DNA of 64,000 bases from assembly GCA_036170915.1 (NCBI GenBank), contig JAVHQC010000036.1:64001-128000 (forward strand), written 5' to 3'. The notes beneath the pieces were generated by a model. It made no database searches. It saw only the letters and a program-made list of their open reading frames with translations, and was not told where the DNA came from. Numbering within the stretch: position 1 is the first letter of the stretch; the number at the start of each line of letters is the position of its first letter. A program made the position numbers and the translations under genes. This stretch comes from Cyanobacteria bacterium auto_48_18. GTDB lineage: Bacteria; Cyanobacteriota; Vampirovibrionia; Obscuribacterales; Obscuribacteraceae. Below are positions 22,438 to 31,645 of this stretch, in pieces.

Positions 22438-23406
22438 TTGAACTCAAATGTAGACCTCATTGCTAAAGAACTGCTGGCCGGTAACAGGCGGGCTCTCGGT
22501 CGCGCTATTTCGCTGGTTGAAAACGGTGGAGCCGATGCCACCAGTCTGGTGCACGAACTTTACCAACATACGGGCAAGGCTCATATCATTGGCGTCACGG
22601 GCTCACCAGGAGTGGGCAAGTCGACTTTAGTAGATGCACTGATAACAGAATGCCGTAAAGAAGATTTGAAAGTGGCTGTGCTGGCTGTAGATCCTTCAAG
22701 CCCATTTACCGGGGGAGCCATTCTTGGTGACCGCATACGCATGCAAGGACACACTTTAGATCGTAATGTATTCATTCGCTCTATGGCTAATCGCGGCCAC
22801 CAGGGCGGAGTTTCACTGGCAACTTATGATGCCATTCGCATGCTCGAAGCTTCCGGCTATCAAGTCATAATTATTGAAACCGTTGGTGTAGGCCAATCTG
22901 AGCTGGCCATTGCTCAGCATGCCGACACCACTATTTTGGTTTTGATGCCAGGATCAGGTGATGATATTCAAGCAATCAAATCTGGCATCATGGAGATCGG
23001 CGATATTTTTGTGGTCAATAAAGGCGACCTGCCTGGCGCCAATAAATCGGCCAGCGAGATTACAGCTTCTTTAGAGCTAAATCATTTTCAAACTTCGTGG
23101 CGTCCACCCGTGGTGCTGGCTATTGCTGAAACTGGTCAGGGTGTTGACCAATTGTGGCAGGCAGCCAAAGATCACAAAAAATTTCTCACAGATGAAAATC
23201 TACTCGACTCAAGACGCAGTTTGCGCATTCGTGCTGAACTTTCAGAAATAGTGGCCGATATTGCTCGGCGCAACTTGCAAGGCTCTATGGATAGTGACAG
23301 CGTGCGTCAAATTTTGAGCCAGATCGTCAACCGCGAAGTTGATCCGCACACTGCCGCAATGAATTTATTGCCTGGCTTATTTAACGGCGTCACTTGCCGC
23401 TCTTAG
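22438..23406 (+). CDS. meaB: MeaB/ArgK family GTPase (cobalamin-dependent mutase chaperone)
   Basis: GVTGSPGVGKST; AVDPSSPFTGGAILGDRIRM; IETVGVGQSE; VVNKGD. Confidence 0.93.
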   Translation: MNSNVDLIAKELLAGNRRALGRAISLVENGGADATSLVHELYQHTGKAHIIGVTGSPGVGKSTLVDALITECRKEDLKVAVLAVDPSSPFTGGAILGDRIRMQGHTLDRNVFIRSMANRGHQGGVSLATYDAIRMLEASGYQVIIIETVGVGQSELAIAQHADTTILVLMPGSGDDIQAIKSGIMEIGDIFVVNKGDLPGANKSASEITASLELNHFQTSWRPPVVLAIAETGQGVDQLWQAAKDHKKFLTDENLLDSRRSLRIRAELSEIVADIARRNLQGSMDSDSVRQILSQIVNREVDPHTAAMNLLPGLFNGVTCRS

Positions 23407-23717: not shown

Positions 23718-24575
23718 GTGTCTAAAATTGCCATAATCAGTCAACCAGATCAGGGCGTCTTAATTGATGTCGGCGGTTGTTCATCACTTAAAGAAGCACT
23801 GGAACATTTAAGTTCGACTCTGCAATCTTCCAATCAATTTTGGAAAGGTCACAAGGTCATTCTTGGCCTGGGTGGCATTGAGCTCACCGTGGCACAGGCA
23901 GCGCAAGTTTTAGCGCTCGCTAAAGGCGTTGGTGTATTCCCTGAAGAAGTTTATTCCAAGAACGAAAAAACCAGAGCCGCCTTTTTAGAAAACAGCGTCA
24001 AGGTGACTAACAGCTTGCCCATGTCGCTACCCAAGATCAATGTTGATATTCCGCTTGGTGGCATACCATTTGCTACTGCTGATGCAGACAGTGACTCAGA
24101 ATCGCAAAATAAAAATGTGGTGCTCGATGTCACCATGATTGAAATGGAACATGACACCGTTGAAGATACGCCGCTGCCTGCCGCCAAAGTTGAAGTAGAC
24201 AAAGATGGCGCTGTAGTGACTACAGTTTTGCCACAAGTGCTTTATATCAAGCAAACCTTGCGCTCGGGCCAGGTAGTCAGCCATAAAGGCGATCTGGTAA
24301 TTGTGGGTGACGTTAATCCGGGGGCTGAAATTTTAGCCGAAGGTGACATTACAGTTTGGGGAAGTTTGCGTGGTATCGCTCACGCTGGTATCGGCGGTAA
24401 TACCGAAGCCGAAATCAGAGCGCTTAACTTGCAGCCGATTCAAATTCGAATTGCCCACGCGATTGCCCGCGCTCCCGACCGCCCGCGCATCACTTATGCG
24501 AACGGCACGGGCCCTGAAATTGCCCGCATAGTCGAAGGCAAGATTCGCATTCAAAAAAACAAGATTGAAAACTAG
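23718..24575 (+). CDS. minC: Septum site-determining protein MinC
   Basis: TLRSGQ...GDLVIVGDVNPGAEI.A.G.I.VWG.LRGIAHAG; upstream of minD. Confidence 0.93.
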   Translation: MSKIAIISQPDQGVLIDVGGCSSLKEALEHLSSTLQSSNQFWKGHKVILGLGGIELTVAQAAQVLALAKGVGVFPEEVYSKNEKTRAAFLENSVKVTNSLPMSLPKINVDIPLGGIPFATADADSDSESQNKNVVLDVTMIEMEHDTVEDTPLPAAKVEVDKDGAVVTTVLPQVLYIKQTLRSGQVVSHKGDLVIVGDVNPGAEILAEGDITVWGSLRGIAHAGIGGNTEAEIRALNLQPIQIRIAHAIARAPDRPRITYANGTGPEIARIVEGKIRIQKNKIEN

Positions 24576-24639
24576 AAATCTAATTCTAGTTCCCAAAGTT
24601 TCTTACAGTCATTATTACAAAGCCATACGAGGATACTAA

Positions 24640-25455
24640 ATGAGCGGACGAGTAATCGTAATCACCTCCGGCAAGGGTGGTGTTGGCAAGACAACAGCTT
24701 CTGCCAATATCGGCGTGGCTCTTGCCTCCACAGGGGTGAGCGTTGCCCTGGTGGATATGGATATAGGACTGCGCAATCTCGACATCTTGATGGGTCTCGA
24801 AAACCGCGTGGTCTACAACCTGGTTGATGTGGTGGAAGAGCGTTGCAAACTGCGCCAAGCTCTGGTCAAAGACAAAAAGTTGCCAAACTTGAGTCTATTG
24901 CCCGCAGCTCAAACCAGAGACAAATCAGCAGTCAATGCTGAGCAAATGAAAGCTCTCTGCGGCGAACTGAAAAGCATGTACGATTTTGTGCTCGTTGACA
25001 GCCCGGCTGGTATTGAGCAAGGTTTCCAGAATGCTGTGGCTGGTGCTGACGAAGCTATTGTCATCACCACCCCTGAAATGTCTGCCGTGCGTGACGCTGA
25101 CCGCATTATCGGTTTGCTTGAAGCTCGTAAAGACGAAATTAAAGAATATCGCCTGGTGCTCAATCGTTATAGACCAACAATGGTGGCCAATAACGACATG
25201 ATGAGCGTTGACGATGTGCTCGAAATTCTTTCTGTAAAACTGCTTGGTGTAGTGCCTGAAGATGAAGACATCATCATCTCCACTAACAAAGGCGAGCCCA
25301 TTTCCGGCACCGACAACATCAGAGCTGGCCTCGCATATCGCAATATCGCTCGTCGCATTCGCGGTGAAGATGTAGCGATAATGGATCTTGAATCTAAGAA
25401 TTCCACCTGGATCAACAAGATCGTCAGCTTCTTTAATCCCACAGTTAGAGTTTAA
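24640..25455 (+). CDS. minD: Septum site-determining ATPase MinD
   Basis: TSGKGGVGKTT; DIGLRNLD; DSPAGIEQGF; AVRDADRIIGLL; amphipathic C-terminus. Confidence 0.97.
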   Translation: MSGRVIVITSGKGGVGKTTASANIGVALASTGVSVALVDMDIGLRNLDILMGLENRVVYNLVDVVEERCKLRQALVKDKKLPNLSLLPAAQTRDKSAVNAEQMKALCGELKSMYDFVLVDSPAGIEQGFQNAVAGADEAIVITTPEMSAVRDADRIIGLLEARKDEIKEYRLVLNRYRPTMVANNDMMSVDDVLEILSVKLLGVVPEDEDIIISTNKGEPISGTDNIRAGLAYRNIARRIRGEDVAIMDLESKNSTWINKIVSFFNPTVRV

Positions 25456-25469
25456 GGGAGGAGGTAACA

Positions 25470-25733
25470 GTGCAAATGCAAATATTCAACTGGCTCTTCC
25501 CCGCAAAAGGCGACGACGTTCGTTCTACAGCCAAAGACAGAATGCGCAGCATGCTGACTCATGACCGTTTAGAGCTGCCCGCCGGCCGTCTGGAAACCCT
25601 GGAAGAAGAGCTTATGGCAGTGGTCGGCCGCTACTTTGAGCTTGATAAAGACACAACTCACTTCGATCTGCAACAATATGAGCGTCGGGCCAGCTTAATC
25701 GCTAATTTCCGATTGCTTCGCTCCAAGTGCTAA
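25470..25733 (+). CDS. minE: Cell division topological specificity factor MinE
   Basis: AKDRMRSMLTHDR...ELMAVVGRYFE; position after minD. Confidence 0.9.
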   Translation: MQMQIFNWLFPAKGDDVRSTAKDRMRSMLTHDRLELPAGRLETLEEELMAVVGRYFELDKDTTHFDLQQYERRASLIANFRLLRSKC

Positions 25734-25761
25734 TTCTGATTAAGAGCATAATGCAGATTTC

Positions 25762-27063
25762 GTGACTTCTCGAGTCGCTCCATCATCACTAATCCCGTCC
25801 GCTGTGCGGAGCCTGTTCAATGTCGTCAACGGCATCGACTTTTGGCTTCTCGGAGCGACGGGATTTTTGATTGCGGTGGGTTTGAACGTGCTGCATTTTT
25901 CGCAGCATACTCAAGGCTATTTTGATAAACAGTTGAGCTACATGTACGCCGGTCTGGCCCTGATGGTGATCGTCAGCCGTATTCCCCATAAATTATGGAC
26001 GAATAAGTGGATGGTCAGTTTGATGTACTTAGTCAATCTTGGACTGCTTGTAGCCGTTATGCTCAAAGGTCACGCCGCCCAGGGGGCGCAGAGATGGCTG
26101 GCGCTGGGACCGATCACACTACAGCCTTCCGAGCTGGCCAAACTAGTGGTAATTTTTTCACTGGCCGCCTGGTTGAGAAATCATCGCATCAATTCGTTTT
26201 TTGATATTTTCAAAATACTGGGCATCATGCTTGTGCCGGCAGTGCTGGTATTCAAGCAGCCAGACTTAGGCACGTCTCTGACTTTTGGTGCCGTCTTCCT
26301 TGGCCTTTCCTACTGGTCGGGTGCCACGGTGATGGACATTCTGGTGCTGATTAGCCCTTTGCTTTCGCTCATTCTCAACGCGCTTAATCTGGAGTGGTGG
26401 CACATGTTTTTAGGAGCCCTGGCTGTGGTGCTCTTAATTTTCTGGCGCACATTTGATTGGAAGATTTGGATTCGGCTGGCCATGATTGTTGTGGTGATGG
26501 CGGCAAATTATGGCTGCGGCGAGGCCCGGCCACATCTCTGGGGTTTACTGAAAGAGTATCAGCAGAAGCGGCTCACCAGTTTCGTAAATCCATATGACGA
26601 CCCCAGGGGCTCTGGTTATCATATTTTGCAAAGTTTAATCGCCATTGGCTCTGGTGGCATCAGTGGTGCTGGTCTAGGACACGGCAATCAGGCCCAGGGC
26701 GCATTTATCCCTGAACGACACACCGACTTTATTTTTGCTGTGATCGGCGAAGAGTTAGGGTTTCGCATCTGTCTACTTATTGTCATCGCCTACGGAATAA
26801 TTTGTCTGCGAGCTCTGTTTATTGCCCATCAATCCAGGGGTGACCCCGCCGGGGCGGCTATGGCTATTGGTCTTATGTGCATGTTTCTCTTTCACGCTTT
26901 CATCAATATTGGCATGACCATCGGCTGTATGCCGGTGGCCGGTGTGCCGCTGCCATTTCTCAGTTATGGCGGCACGGCTTTGATTGTCGATCTCGTTGCC
27001 ATCGGCCTGTTGCAGTCAATTTATTATCACAACCCTAAAGAAGTGAAAGACGACTGGGGTTAG
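25762..27063 (+). CDS. rodA: Rod shape-determining SEDS protein RodA
   Basis: GAQRWL...QPSELAK; QPDLGT; GYHILQSLIAIGSGG; PERHTDFIF; GVPLPFLSYGG. Confidence 0.9.
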   Translation: MTSRVAPSSLIPSAVRSLFNVVNGIDFWLLGATGFLIAVGLNVLHFSQHTQGYFDKQLSYMYAGLALMVIVSRIPHKLWTNKWMVSLMYLVNLGLLVAVMLKGHAAQGAQRWLALGPITLQPSELAKLVVIFSLAAWLRNHRINSFFDIFKILGIMLVPAVLVFKQPDLGTSLTFGAVFLGLSYWSGATVMDILVLISPLLSLILNALNLEWWHMFLGALAVVLLIFWRTFDWKIWIRLAMIVVVMAANYGCGEARPHLWGLLKEYQQKRLTSFVNPYDDPRGSGYHILQSLIAIGSGGISGAGLGHGNQAQGAFIPERHTDFIFAVIGEELGFRICLLIVIAYGIICLRALFIAHQSRGDPAGAAMAIGLMCMFLFHAFINIGMTIGCMPVAGVPLPFLSYGGTALIVDLVAIGLLQSIYYHNPKEVKDDWG

Positions 27064-29365: not shown

Positions 29366-29422
29366 AATTTCCTCCCGCTGCCACTAGTAGGCAGCAATAT
29401 TTAACTGGTGACTGAAAGAATT

Positions 29423-29448
29423 TTGACTCAAAATACATTTATAGTCAA
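29423..29448. promoter_or_regulatory. Candidate TetR operator TTGACT-N14-AGTCAA
   Basis: Inverted repeat in the divergent fasciclin/TetR intergenic region. Confidence 0.45.
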
Positions 29449-29488
29449 TCCTCTAGTCGTTAATTGTAAAATGTGTCAGGAGAGAAGA

Positions 29489-30109
29489 ATGAATCAAACG
29501 CGACGCGGGAAAATTTTAGAGTCGGCAACCTGGCTATTTGGTTACTATGGCTTTGAAAAGACCACTGTTGACGATATAGCTGACCGAGCGTCAGTCAGCA
29601 AGGGTTCTGTTTATCTAGAATTTCAGAACAAAGAAGCGATTTTGGTCGCAGTTGTTCAGCAATTTACAAGCCGCGAACTTGAGCGCATCAATCGACTTTT
29701 GAAAGAAGCAAAGGCGCCCTACCTTGAGGTTTTACGCGAGCTTCTATACGGTCATGTTATGTCGTACTGGTCAATCGCCAGCGGCCAGTTACATAGCCCC
29801 GAAGTTATTGCTTCGGCAAACCCTTCGATCATGGCTGAAATTATCAACTTTCAGAGTGCAATATTTTTACAGATTGCATTTTTACTTGAGAAAGCCGCAA
29901 CTAACAAAGAAATTGCGCCGGCAAAAGCGGCTGACGAATATTTCTTTCAGGCCGAACTTGTCTGCTATCTTTTGGCCGCCTTATTCCCGCCTTACGACAG
30001 ACTCAAAGCACGAGACCCCGCGGCGTTTACTGAAGCAACTTTGCGCAAATACGCAGAGAGCATGATCACCATGACCTTGAATGGTGTTCGCTCGAGCGGT
30101 GTATTGTAG
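29489..30109 (+). CDS. TetR/AcrR family transcriptional regulator
   Basis: ILESA..LF...GFEKTTVDDIADRASVSKGSVYLEF.NKE; ATG at 29489 with an AGGAG RBS preferred over the track start 29408. Confidence 0.93.
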   Translation: MNQTRRGKILESATWLFGYYGFEKTTVDDIADRASVSKGSVYLEFQNKEAILVAVVQQFTSRELERINRLLKEAKAPYLEVLRELLYGHVMSYWSIASGQLHSPEVIASANPSIMAEIINFQSAIFLQIAFLLEKAATNKEIAPAKAADEYFFQAELVCYLLAALFPPYDRLKARDPAAFTEATLRKYAESMITMTLNGVRSSGVL

Positions 30110-30150
30110 AAGAATCAAGAATCTTGGTTCAGTTTCAGGAGAATTTTTCT

Positions 30151-30963
30151 ATGAGAACGATCAAGGCGTGTGGCTGTGGGTTCATCGCCTTGGTCGCTTG
30201 TTTTATTCTTTGTGCGCAGGCTTTTGGGCGTCAAAGCTGGAATCAAGAAGAAGCTGTTAGGCGCGTGCAATCGGTGATCACCCAAGAAGAGGCCAACGAT
30301 TTCCGCTGGGACAAAATTGACTGGCTGGTGGACGCAAAATTAGCTGCCAGTAGATCGCAAGCTGAACACAAGCCAATTTTGCTTTACTTTTTCCTCAAAG
30401 GCGATATTGGTCCGAAGGCGGCGCCTTGCTGACCAGGCGGACGCTTGATGAGGACGGTCTGTCTCTCTAATGAAATCGTGCAAGAGAAAGTAAACGCTTC
30501 GTTCATTCCACTGAAGGTTCAAATCGATCGCGGCACTGCAAAATTTCCCCTGGATTGGCCGGCTCTAAAAAATTGGAAAACTACTTACGCCCTGATGGGT
30601 GGCAGTAAAGCTACGGGCATCACTGCCTGTGTAGTGGTAAGTCCAGATCTGAAATTGCAGTTGGGCAGCACTGGCTCTGCGTTCGTTTGGGAACTGTTTG
30701 ATTCAATTGCTTATGATCCTGTGAAGTTCGCTGCCATGCTTGATGCTTCCTTAGCGAGATCTTCTCAATACGAAAAGATCCTTTCAACCGGTGCTACAAA
30801 CGCAAAAGAACTTCATCGCTTTCGCCATGAGCTTAGTCAGGCATTACAAAAGGAAGGCAGATTTCATTTGCCTCCTCGCGGATTTACCATTGAAGGGGCT
30901 AAAGAACTTTTCCGTCAGACTGGCGACTTAAAAGACGACATGGGTAAACGCCGTTCCAAATAA
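30151..30963 (+). CDS. Exported thioredoxin-fold selenoprotein with CU motif (SelN-like), 270 aa, Sec at UGA 30430-30432; joins two track ORFs
   Basis: ORFs 30124-30432 and 30445-30963 are in one frame separated only by TGA CCA GGC GGA CGC; reads ...AEHKPILLYFFLKGDIGPKAAPC-U-PGGRLMRTVCLSNEIVQEKVNASFIPLKV; AGGAGA RBS; signal peptide ending AQA. Confidence 0.82.
30450..30467 (+). promoter_or_regulatory. Candidate bacterial SECIS hairpin
   Basis: GAGGAC-GGUCU-GUCUCUC, loop starts 24 nt after the UGA and resembles the E. coli fdhF SECIS loop; an alternative 8-bp stem AGGCGGAC/GUCUGUCU is also possible. Confidence 0.6.
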
Positions 30964-30982: not shown

Positions 30983-31645
30983 CTAGACCGGCACAGCCGC
31001 TGGATTAAAGACTATTTCGGCATCAAAGGCGCCAGCCGGCTGATCATGCAATTGCAAAAAGCTTTCAGCAATCACTGCAGGGTCGAACGCGGTACCAGGC
31101 GCCACGATACCACATATGGTGACAGTGGCTACATGTATTCCTGATGAACTTAACTCTTGATGCAGGCACTGATTTAATGCTCTAAGAGCCGCCTTACCCA
31201 CAGACAGCGCTGTCACTTGAGCTGCCGGTTGCAATGCGTAGCCTCCACCAGTGAAAAGAATAGTGCCTTTACCGAGGTTTTTCATCCCTGGAATTACTGC
31301 TTGCGACGCGGCCAGTGCGGGCGTGACATTGACACCTAATGATTGGCTGAATTTCTCAGCGTCAACACGAGAACCTCTGCCTGGCGTCAAACTAAAAGCA
31401 TTAAAATGAAGTACTTCTATTTCTCCATGTTTTTCTGCAATTTCTGCTAGACAGGTTTTTAACTCTTCTAAGTTAGAGACGTCGAGCTGCCAGGCCGAAG
31501 CATTCTCACCTAATTCGGCACAAAGACCATCAAGCTTTTCACGATTTCGCGCGCACAAGGCGACGTGATAACCGCGGCCTAAAAACGCTTTGGCCACCGC
31601 CTGACCTACACCTGCTCCTGCTCCAAGCACTACGCATGTTGCCAC
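30983..31645 (-). CDS. Short-chain dehydrogenase/reductase, atypical subtype
   Basis: VLGAGAGVGQAVA; FNA; GTILFTG; catalytic YxxxK position reads LSVGK. Confidence 0.88.
   Translation of the reverse strand: MATCVVLGAGAGVGQAVAKAFLGRGYHVALCARNREKLDGLCAELGENASAWQLDVSNLEELKTCLAEIAEKHGEIEVLHFNAFSLTPGRGSRVDAEKFSQSLGVNVTPALAASQAVIPGMKNLGKGTILFTGGGYALQPAAQVTALSVGKAALRALNQCLHQELSSSGIHVATVTICGIVAPGTAFDPAVIAESFLQLHDQPAGAFDAEIVFNPAAVPV

Follow-up and report, generated by a model that had tools for sequence, protein, structure and literature searches.

The two open reading frames that gene calling places on either side of an in-frame TGA in the window (the whole analysed stretch of DNA, 64,000 nucleotides long) are best read as a single gene, in which the UGA at codon 94 is almost certainly decoded as selenocysteine (Sec), so that the two "hypothetical genes" become one thioredoxin-fold protein, predicted to be exported. 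This proposal, already made in the first-pass annotation, is borne out by a conserved TGA, homologues carrying Cys, a conserved hairpin and the presence of Sec machinery. The reading as a whole, i.e. a Sec-decoded, exported, periplasmic thiol reductase with DsbD as possible electron donor, seems likely to us, and its parts are graded separately below.

The region 30151-30963 (+) is a single frame of 270 codons, with its TAA ending at 30963, and the only internal stop is the TGA at 30430-30432, directly after the TGC of Cys93; frame and residues are those first described, i.e. two reading frames in register, joined across a TGA that follows a Cys. Gene calling with table 11 splits the locus into ORFs 30124-30432 and 30445-30963. 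That annotation pipelines would split the gene was correctly foreseen: half-proteins constitute 100 of the 116 homologues, and three of the C-halves were named "hypothetical protein" by NCBI. The AGGAG upstream of the start codon (Table 1) is shared with a relative at 91% identity (L020). The claim that the second ORF has no clear Shine-Dalgarno of its own does not stand, as AGGCGG is found 7 nt before ATG 30448; judging from the codons, this motif is a by-product of those for Pro-Gly-Gly, and gene callers start at Met100 probably because it precedes that ATG.

Conservation of the TGA was evaluated in the 104 genomes of the host's family, 20 of which contain matches to the read-through protein. 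Exactly one TGA is present in 22 of the 24 matches; the remaining two derive from one frameshifted copy in genome G075, of which each covers a half. This decayed copy (L028/L043, G075:C18:93371-93771) keeps the TGA, at which its N-half likewise ends, and its frame shifts soon 3' of it. Seven of eight metagenome loci show TGA at the aligned site, and the eighth (L048) begins 3' of it. The first-pass annotation had named TAA or TAG at this position as evidence that would count against it; the stop is TGA in all intact loci examined and TAA or TAG in none. Among the 116 protein homologues there are 53 N-halves (48 of them terminating in Cys), 47 C-halves and 16 spanning proteins, whose protein records show Cys (13), Gly (2) or Arg (1) at the Sec site, and a further homologue, P0183, has Asp; an aligned TGA or Cys was what the homologue search had been expected to yield. 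The Cys form P0039 corresponds to NCBI record HYE07962.1, from a Planctomycetota genome. The residue preceding Sec is Cys in 31 of 39 loci, Thr in 5 and Gly in 3, these 39 being what is left of 62 after removal of duplicates and of loci without a matching site, and loci within one family not being independent of one another. The names of the homologue sources include Melainabacteria, Verrucomicrobiota and Planctomycetota. A Cys-form homologue, P0113 (E 6e-4), comes from an MMETSP marine eukaryote transcriptome, being either a eukaryotic member or a bacterial contaminant. No relative was found among 11 candidate stretches of viral contigs, and in a sample of 400 genomes from elsewhere in the phylum the A5 profile had no match at E 1e-8. 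Matches by phmmer to designed helical repeats were dismissed as chance.

Bacterial SECIS elements are typically stem-loops located just 3' of the UGA with a G early in the loop. A structure of this kind is found here, with its loop at +24, and it is the GGUCU-loop hairpin that had been noticed in the first pass. Its support comes from conservation, not from thermodynamic stability, which is ordinary compared with shuffled sequences (z 0.04, -0.56, 0.07 and 0.43). In ten close homologous genes, of the 204 pairs at codons +6 to +12 that encode an identical amino acid, 156 also use an identical codon, compared with 1792 of 4291 elsewhere (such pairs not being independent of one another); the most constrained of 215 seven-codon windows begins at +5, and the hairpin is overlapped by each of the seven highest-ranking ones. 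Under thresholds chosen post hoc (loop start at +20 to +27, G in the first two bases), a hairpin is present in 35 of the 39 distinct loci, the other four failing the test, and at 256 of 2031 control codon positions of the same genes (12.6%). An alternative hairpin right after the UGA (30434-30447) was rejected as the element because codons +1 to +5 are synonymously conserved only at background level (third positions alike in 98 of 225 pairs). The Rfam search returned no SECIS family match, and promoter and terminator scans of the locus gave nothing useful.

As to the decoding machinery, the search for sel genes recovered selB (above its curated cut-off), selD in its Cys form (364.5 bits) and the tRNA-Sec gene selC (75.8 bits; L012, G000:C16:70007-70101), which is the only one of the 59 tRNAs reported by ARAGORN with a TCA anticodon; selA was not found in the host assembly, 86% complete, with two models and with tblastn using the protein of the nearest relative. 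The simplest reading of this absence is an assembly gap, because host contig C27 breaks at the syntenic place of selA: in the single-contig genome G033 a tandem-repeat array is followed, after about 1.7 kb, by selA, C27 starts inside the same array, and the host assembly also lacks the genes that lie past selA. Among the family genomes 83 of 104 have selA, as do 13 of 14 further members of the genus, G032 with its 91%-identical gene being one of them. A selA match occurs in 18 of 19 other carriers of the gene, a co-occurrence that is uninformative because the base rate is already 83 of 103. The sel genes are scattered in the genome (L012, L064, L009); with neighbours named by sequence reading, tRNA-Sec lies between a XerC/D-like recombinase and rpoB, the Cys-form selD is followed by a YedF-like gene, and selA in the genus sits beside tuf and a ribosomal-protein cluster. 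FdhA was not found in the 86%-complete host assembly. Relatives of the C-U family aside, the genome contains a selenoprotein gene of a known type at G000:C22:456962 (-), a TlpA/redoxin and probable lipoprotein with U-x-x-C, whose GGUC-loop hairpin is located further 3', at about +32.

The AlphaFold model of the read-through protein (P0001; pLDDT 91.6) displays a Thioredoxin_7/DsbH-type fold, and the best structural matches are generic Thioredoxin_7, DsbH, AGR and UAS domains, in agreement with the thioredoxin fold first proposed. Sec94 precedes the active-site helix, which begins at residue 95 in the model, and a split at the TGA would, according to the same model, separate strand 76-82 from helix 95-103 of the fold. 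Two arginines follow on this helix, at U+4 in 33 of 39 loci and at U+7 in 37 of 39. The active site reads C-U-P-G-G, with no Cys at +3, hence it is not of the CxxC type. In what is putatively the strand bearing the cis-Pro loop in thioredoxins, T158 is invariant among 25 C-halves, and G156 and C160 are conserved in at least 90%; more distant TGA forms show Ser or Thr in place of C160, and it is within the close subfamily alone that this Cys might serve as resolving thiol. Export to the periplasm or beyond, also part of the initial proposal, is very probable from the sequence: an N-terminal 10-residue stretch with mean hydropathy of at least 1.8 is found in 42 of 45 N-termini, P0001 included (a count made with no control set). 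pLDDT is low across the signal-peptide region of the model.

Table 1. Coordinates of the features discussed in the text; positions are those of the window, except for the paralogues, which are located on host contigs by the first base of the TGA or, for L070, by one contig position.
Feature	Position	Strand	Basis or remark
TetR-family regulator, upstream, 41-nt gap	29408..30109	+	PF00440, E 1.7e-14
Shine-Dalgarno-like AGGAG, 9 nt 5' of start codon	30137..30141	+	sequence; kept in L020
Read-through CDS P0001, 270 aa, Sec at codon 94	30151..30963	+	translation, homologues
Probable cleavable signal peptide: basic N-region, hydrophobic core, A-Q-A end	30151..30222	+	predicted cleavage site
Thioredoxin-fold core, about residues 49-210	30295..30780	+	
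Cys93 (TGC) and Sec94 (TGA)	30427..30432	+	sequence; AlphaFold model
Shine-Dalgarno-like AGGCGG, 7 nt 5' of ATG 30448 (Met100)	30435..30440	+	sequence
Arg98 (U+4) and Arg101 (U+7), active-site helix	30442..30453	+	locus alignment
SECIS candidate: 6-bp stem, one bulge, loop GGUCU	30450..30467 (loop 30456-30460, +24 to +28)	+	
G156-I-T158-A-C160, strand bearing the cis-Pro loop in thioredoxins	30616..30630	+	putative register
Short-chain dehydrogenase, convergent	30983..31645	-	PF00106, E 8e-34
L067, exported Trx-fold paralogue, T-U	G000:C22:56067	-	
L069, exported Trx-fold paralogue, T-U	G000:C22:442163	-	
L068, exported Trx-fold paralogue, T-U	G000:C16:91224	+	
L070, UGA-split Trx7-like gene, V-P-G-T-W-U, hairpin +25	G000:C5:71483	+	

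The mechanism that we propose follows the standard bacterial route, in which SelB would bind the hairpin with the GGUCU loop, 24 nt 3' of the UGA, and bring Sec-tRNA(Sec) to UGA94, a step for which the case is strong, and the signal peptide would then direct the protein to the periplasm. In the model, and with the register assumed here, Sec94 would stand at the N-terminus of the active-site helix, in the place of the attacking Cys of CxxC, and Gly97 would replace the usual resolving Cys, yielding U-x-x-G. The selenolate may attack an oxidised thiol target, be it a disulfide or a sulfenylated Cys, possibly also a peroxide, and the resulting mixed Se-S bond could be released by the neighbouring Cys93 through a vicinal selenenyl-sulfide, much as in thioredoxin reductases with their C-U; in forms with Thr or Gly at position 93, release would have to come from an outside thiol. 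Thiol-redox catalysis of this sort is, in our judgement, quite likely. Re-reduction might use electrons from DsbD, which is encoded in the host genome (G000:C20:80466-81623) and which we put forward as donor only tentatively; comparison of the homologue loci revealed no conserved gene neighbourhood hinting at substrate or donor.

Were the UGA a true stop, the locus would yield two polypeptides, one of 93 aa that is exported and one of 171 aa that starts at Met100, and the two might reassemble. The SD-like AGGCGG before Met100, the predominance of halves among the database homologues and the failure to find selA in the host assembly would all fit such a pair of polypeptides, which we nevertheless consider very improbable: the codon is always TGA in the intact loci examined, full-length Cys forms are known, the five codons from the TGA to Met100 are in frame and conserved as protein (P-G-G-R-L), export of the N-half would leave behind a C-half that lacks a signal peptide, and half-proteins are what table-11 gene calling is expected to make of a Sec gene. 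Extremely improbable is that the TGA is a nonsense mutation in a pseudogene, an assembly error, or a codon for Trp, Gly or Cys under another code. The same TGA recurs across many genera and unrelated metagenome contigs, the sole TCA-anticodon tRNA is tRNA-Sec and homologues show Cys, not Trp, at the site, which outweighs the decayed copy in G075 and the Gly of two spanning homologues; regarding assembly, a contig from a possible source run is identical to the stretch, and is not an independent witness. A 231-nt contig of depth 2 from a possibly-RNA soil run spans 30344-30574 and proves nothing on expression.

A different function for the Sec-decoded, exported protein has also to be weighed, namely that the C-U pair binds a soft metal or metalloid, be it Hg, As, Cu or Ag, or senses redox state or a ligand, and is no reductase. 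AGR and UAS domains, which are largely non-catalytic, rank among the top structural matches, CxxC is absent and, by register, so is the cis-Pro; several catalogued C-U selenoproteins, SaoL, MbdU and HgcA, are tied to metal handling (PMC13188914 Table 1). Yet Sec occupies the canonical attacking position of the thioredoxin fold, among the ORFs around 10 loci, judged by their N-terminal sequences, no metal-resistance gene was evident, and a two-ligand site is not required, because Thr or Gly replaces Cys93 in 8 of 39 TGA loci while Sec is kept. We therefore regard metal binding or sensing as unlikely and favour thiol-redox catalysis.

The genomic context offers little in this respect. A conserved operon was rejected because neighbourhoods differ between homologues, and the upstream TetR-family regulator belongs to the surroundings of the gene, being no conserved component of the system. 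Elsewhere in the window, a minC-minD-minE-rodA/ftsW-like cluster (23718-27063) and a MeaB-like GTPase (22438-23406) were recognized by eye. Dense tRNA arrays are often seen in mobile elements, and the host genome has two, of nine genes each, at G000:C33:15652-16458 and 164122-165603.

Thioredoxin_7-like genes that contain UGA form a large set still without a name, within which P0001 represents one subfamily. The host genome itself encodes four further UGA-containing genes of the same fold, each with a hairpin at +24 or +25 (Table 1); three of them, L067, L069 and L068, have in common a hairpin with loop CGUGUC at +24, and NCBIfam gave no match for two of these and weak unrelated matches for one, while L070 matches weakly the TsoB and Trx7/PDZ models. 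A mechanical genome scan reduced 617 TGAs to 17 hits, five of which are the P0001 gene and these four paralogues. The A5 profile finds matches in 75 of 104 family genomes, mostly with one TGA, its weak matches including ordinary CxxC proteins. A large second subfamily, of L-D-D-x-x-C-U type and UGA-split, occurs in Melainabacteria and Planctomycetota (L033-L040, L085-L102; P0186-P0305), and its loop length is presumably nearer to that of selenoprotein N than is the loop of P0001. Together with the three T-U paralogues this subfamily makes up A6, which aligns to A5 (probability 98.6) and has at least 296 database relatives. Smaller UGA-split subfamilies are represented by L033/L085, L086/L090 and L088.

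Selenoprotein N (SELENON) is a human muscle-disease protein, and a SelN-like identity had been suggested for the present gene. Profile searches brought no SELENON to light: among longer proteins, 7996 scored candidates gave one unrelated DsbH-domain match, and of the 296 matches to the profile built from the more distant family, the 120 listed included none named SELENON. Atlas searches with the natural homologues P0002 and P0039 had bacterial clusters alone among the matches listed; PDB sequence and fold searches had no SELENON chain among theirs. All these look-ups depend on shared words or an available structure, so that a miss says little. P0001 and SELENON were compared by described motifs. 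A SelN homologue in Poribacteria is reportedly the subject of an unpublished thesis, and our literature search found no paper describing one.

According to PMC12839072, SELENON is a 590-aa protein with an S-C-U-G motif, Sec462 (also numbered 458 there), Arg466, an EF-hand and a membrane anchor. With it P0001 shares the C-U dyad, a thioredoxin-like domain, an Arg at Sec +4 (Arg466 there, Arg98 here) and, if exported as predicted, an active site that faces away from the cytosol (PMC12839072). P0001 differs from the protein so described in its P-C-U-P motif, its 270 aa, a predicted signal peptide instead of a retained single-pass anchor, and the lack of a Pfam match to an EF-hand; its SECIS candidate lies inside the ORF, whereas that of SELENON is in the 3'-UTR, with an SRE in addition. 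P0001 would work like an extracytosolic C-U thioredoxin of SelN type and cannot be filed as SelN. Shared specific ancestry with SELENON has, in our estimate, about an even chance. Slightly below even we place the broader idea of a bacterial SelN superfamily of exported C/T/G-U thioredoxin folds that descend from an ancestor shared with SELENON, have multiplied in the host's family and the PVC group and are maybe the main clients of the Sec machinery, the last because FdhA was not found here and SelD is a Cys form.

With or without that link, a large and systematically mis-annotated selenoprotein family is added, most of whose database records are half-proteins called hypothetical, and without it there would still be a new active-site type, C-U-x-x-G, of periplasmic thioredoxin. 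If the link is true, a soluble bacterial version makes the catalytic chemistry and structure of SELENON testable: the catalytic domain, together with disease residues such as Arg466, could then be modelled conveniently on the soluble 27-kDa protein, which is small and has natural Cys variants. Among the publications listed by our literature search none was a study of how this Cyanobacteriota lineage uses Sec, and such use may be undescribed so far. According to the parts consulted of a 2026 review, aerobic bacteria rarely retain selenoproteins, and SelN is not listed there among the families shared with eukaryotes (PMC13188914).

Concerning selenoproteins already catalogued, the 119 prokaryotic families of PMC13188914 Table 1 include no SelN-like entry and no thioredoxin-fold entry with C-U-x-x-G/R, its C-U entries being other families (SaoC, SaoL, SaoB, HgcA, MbdU, KCU-star and Csac_0668). 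No motif match came from a text-term search of the accessible portions of PMC12013277 and its four supplements, and the literature search found no description of this selenoprotein family. No model of NCBIfam (June 2026) or Pfam reaches its cut-off for P0001, which scores 16.7 bits with NF041383 (cut-off 275) and 15.1 bits with PF13899/PF03190 (cut-off 27); over 13 proteins, NF041383, NF041199 and NF045694 attain at best 18.4 bits against cut-offs of 275-805, and 18 of 80 family members match PF13899 at E <=0.05. We take this to be a real selenoprotein subfamily, uncatalogued with respect to PMC13188914 Table 1, NCBIfam and Pfam, on whose novelty BSepDB Table S2 (PMC13326102) may also bear.

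Similarities to the catalogued thioredoxin-fold selenoproteins are nonetheless clear. P0001 has, like them, the UGA at the thioredoxin active site, a hairpin just 3' of it and Sec/Cys homologue pairs; an in-ORF SECIS is also a property of VPGUxxT type 2 (NF041383), Trx7/PDZ (NF041199), TsoB (NF045694) and the TlpA/redoxin U-x-x-C proteins (PMC13188914 Table 1), and their profiles match weakly its Trx7-like N-terminal region. What sets it apart is the motif C-U-x-x-G/R, in which neither +3 nor -3 holds a further Cys. Compared with the Thioredoxin_7/Thioredox_DsbH clan (DsbD-gamma, DsbH, 3f9u, 2lst, 3ira; AGR2/AGR3; UAS), to which its identity is 9-20%, P0001 has a longer loop that leads up to the active site and ends in C-U, the motif U-x-x-G in place of CxxC, a Thr at the putative cis-Pro site, and an extra N-terminal helix (32-47) as well as additional C-terminal helices (190-257).
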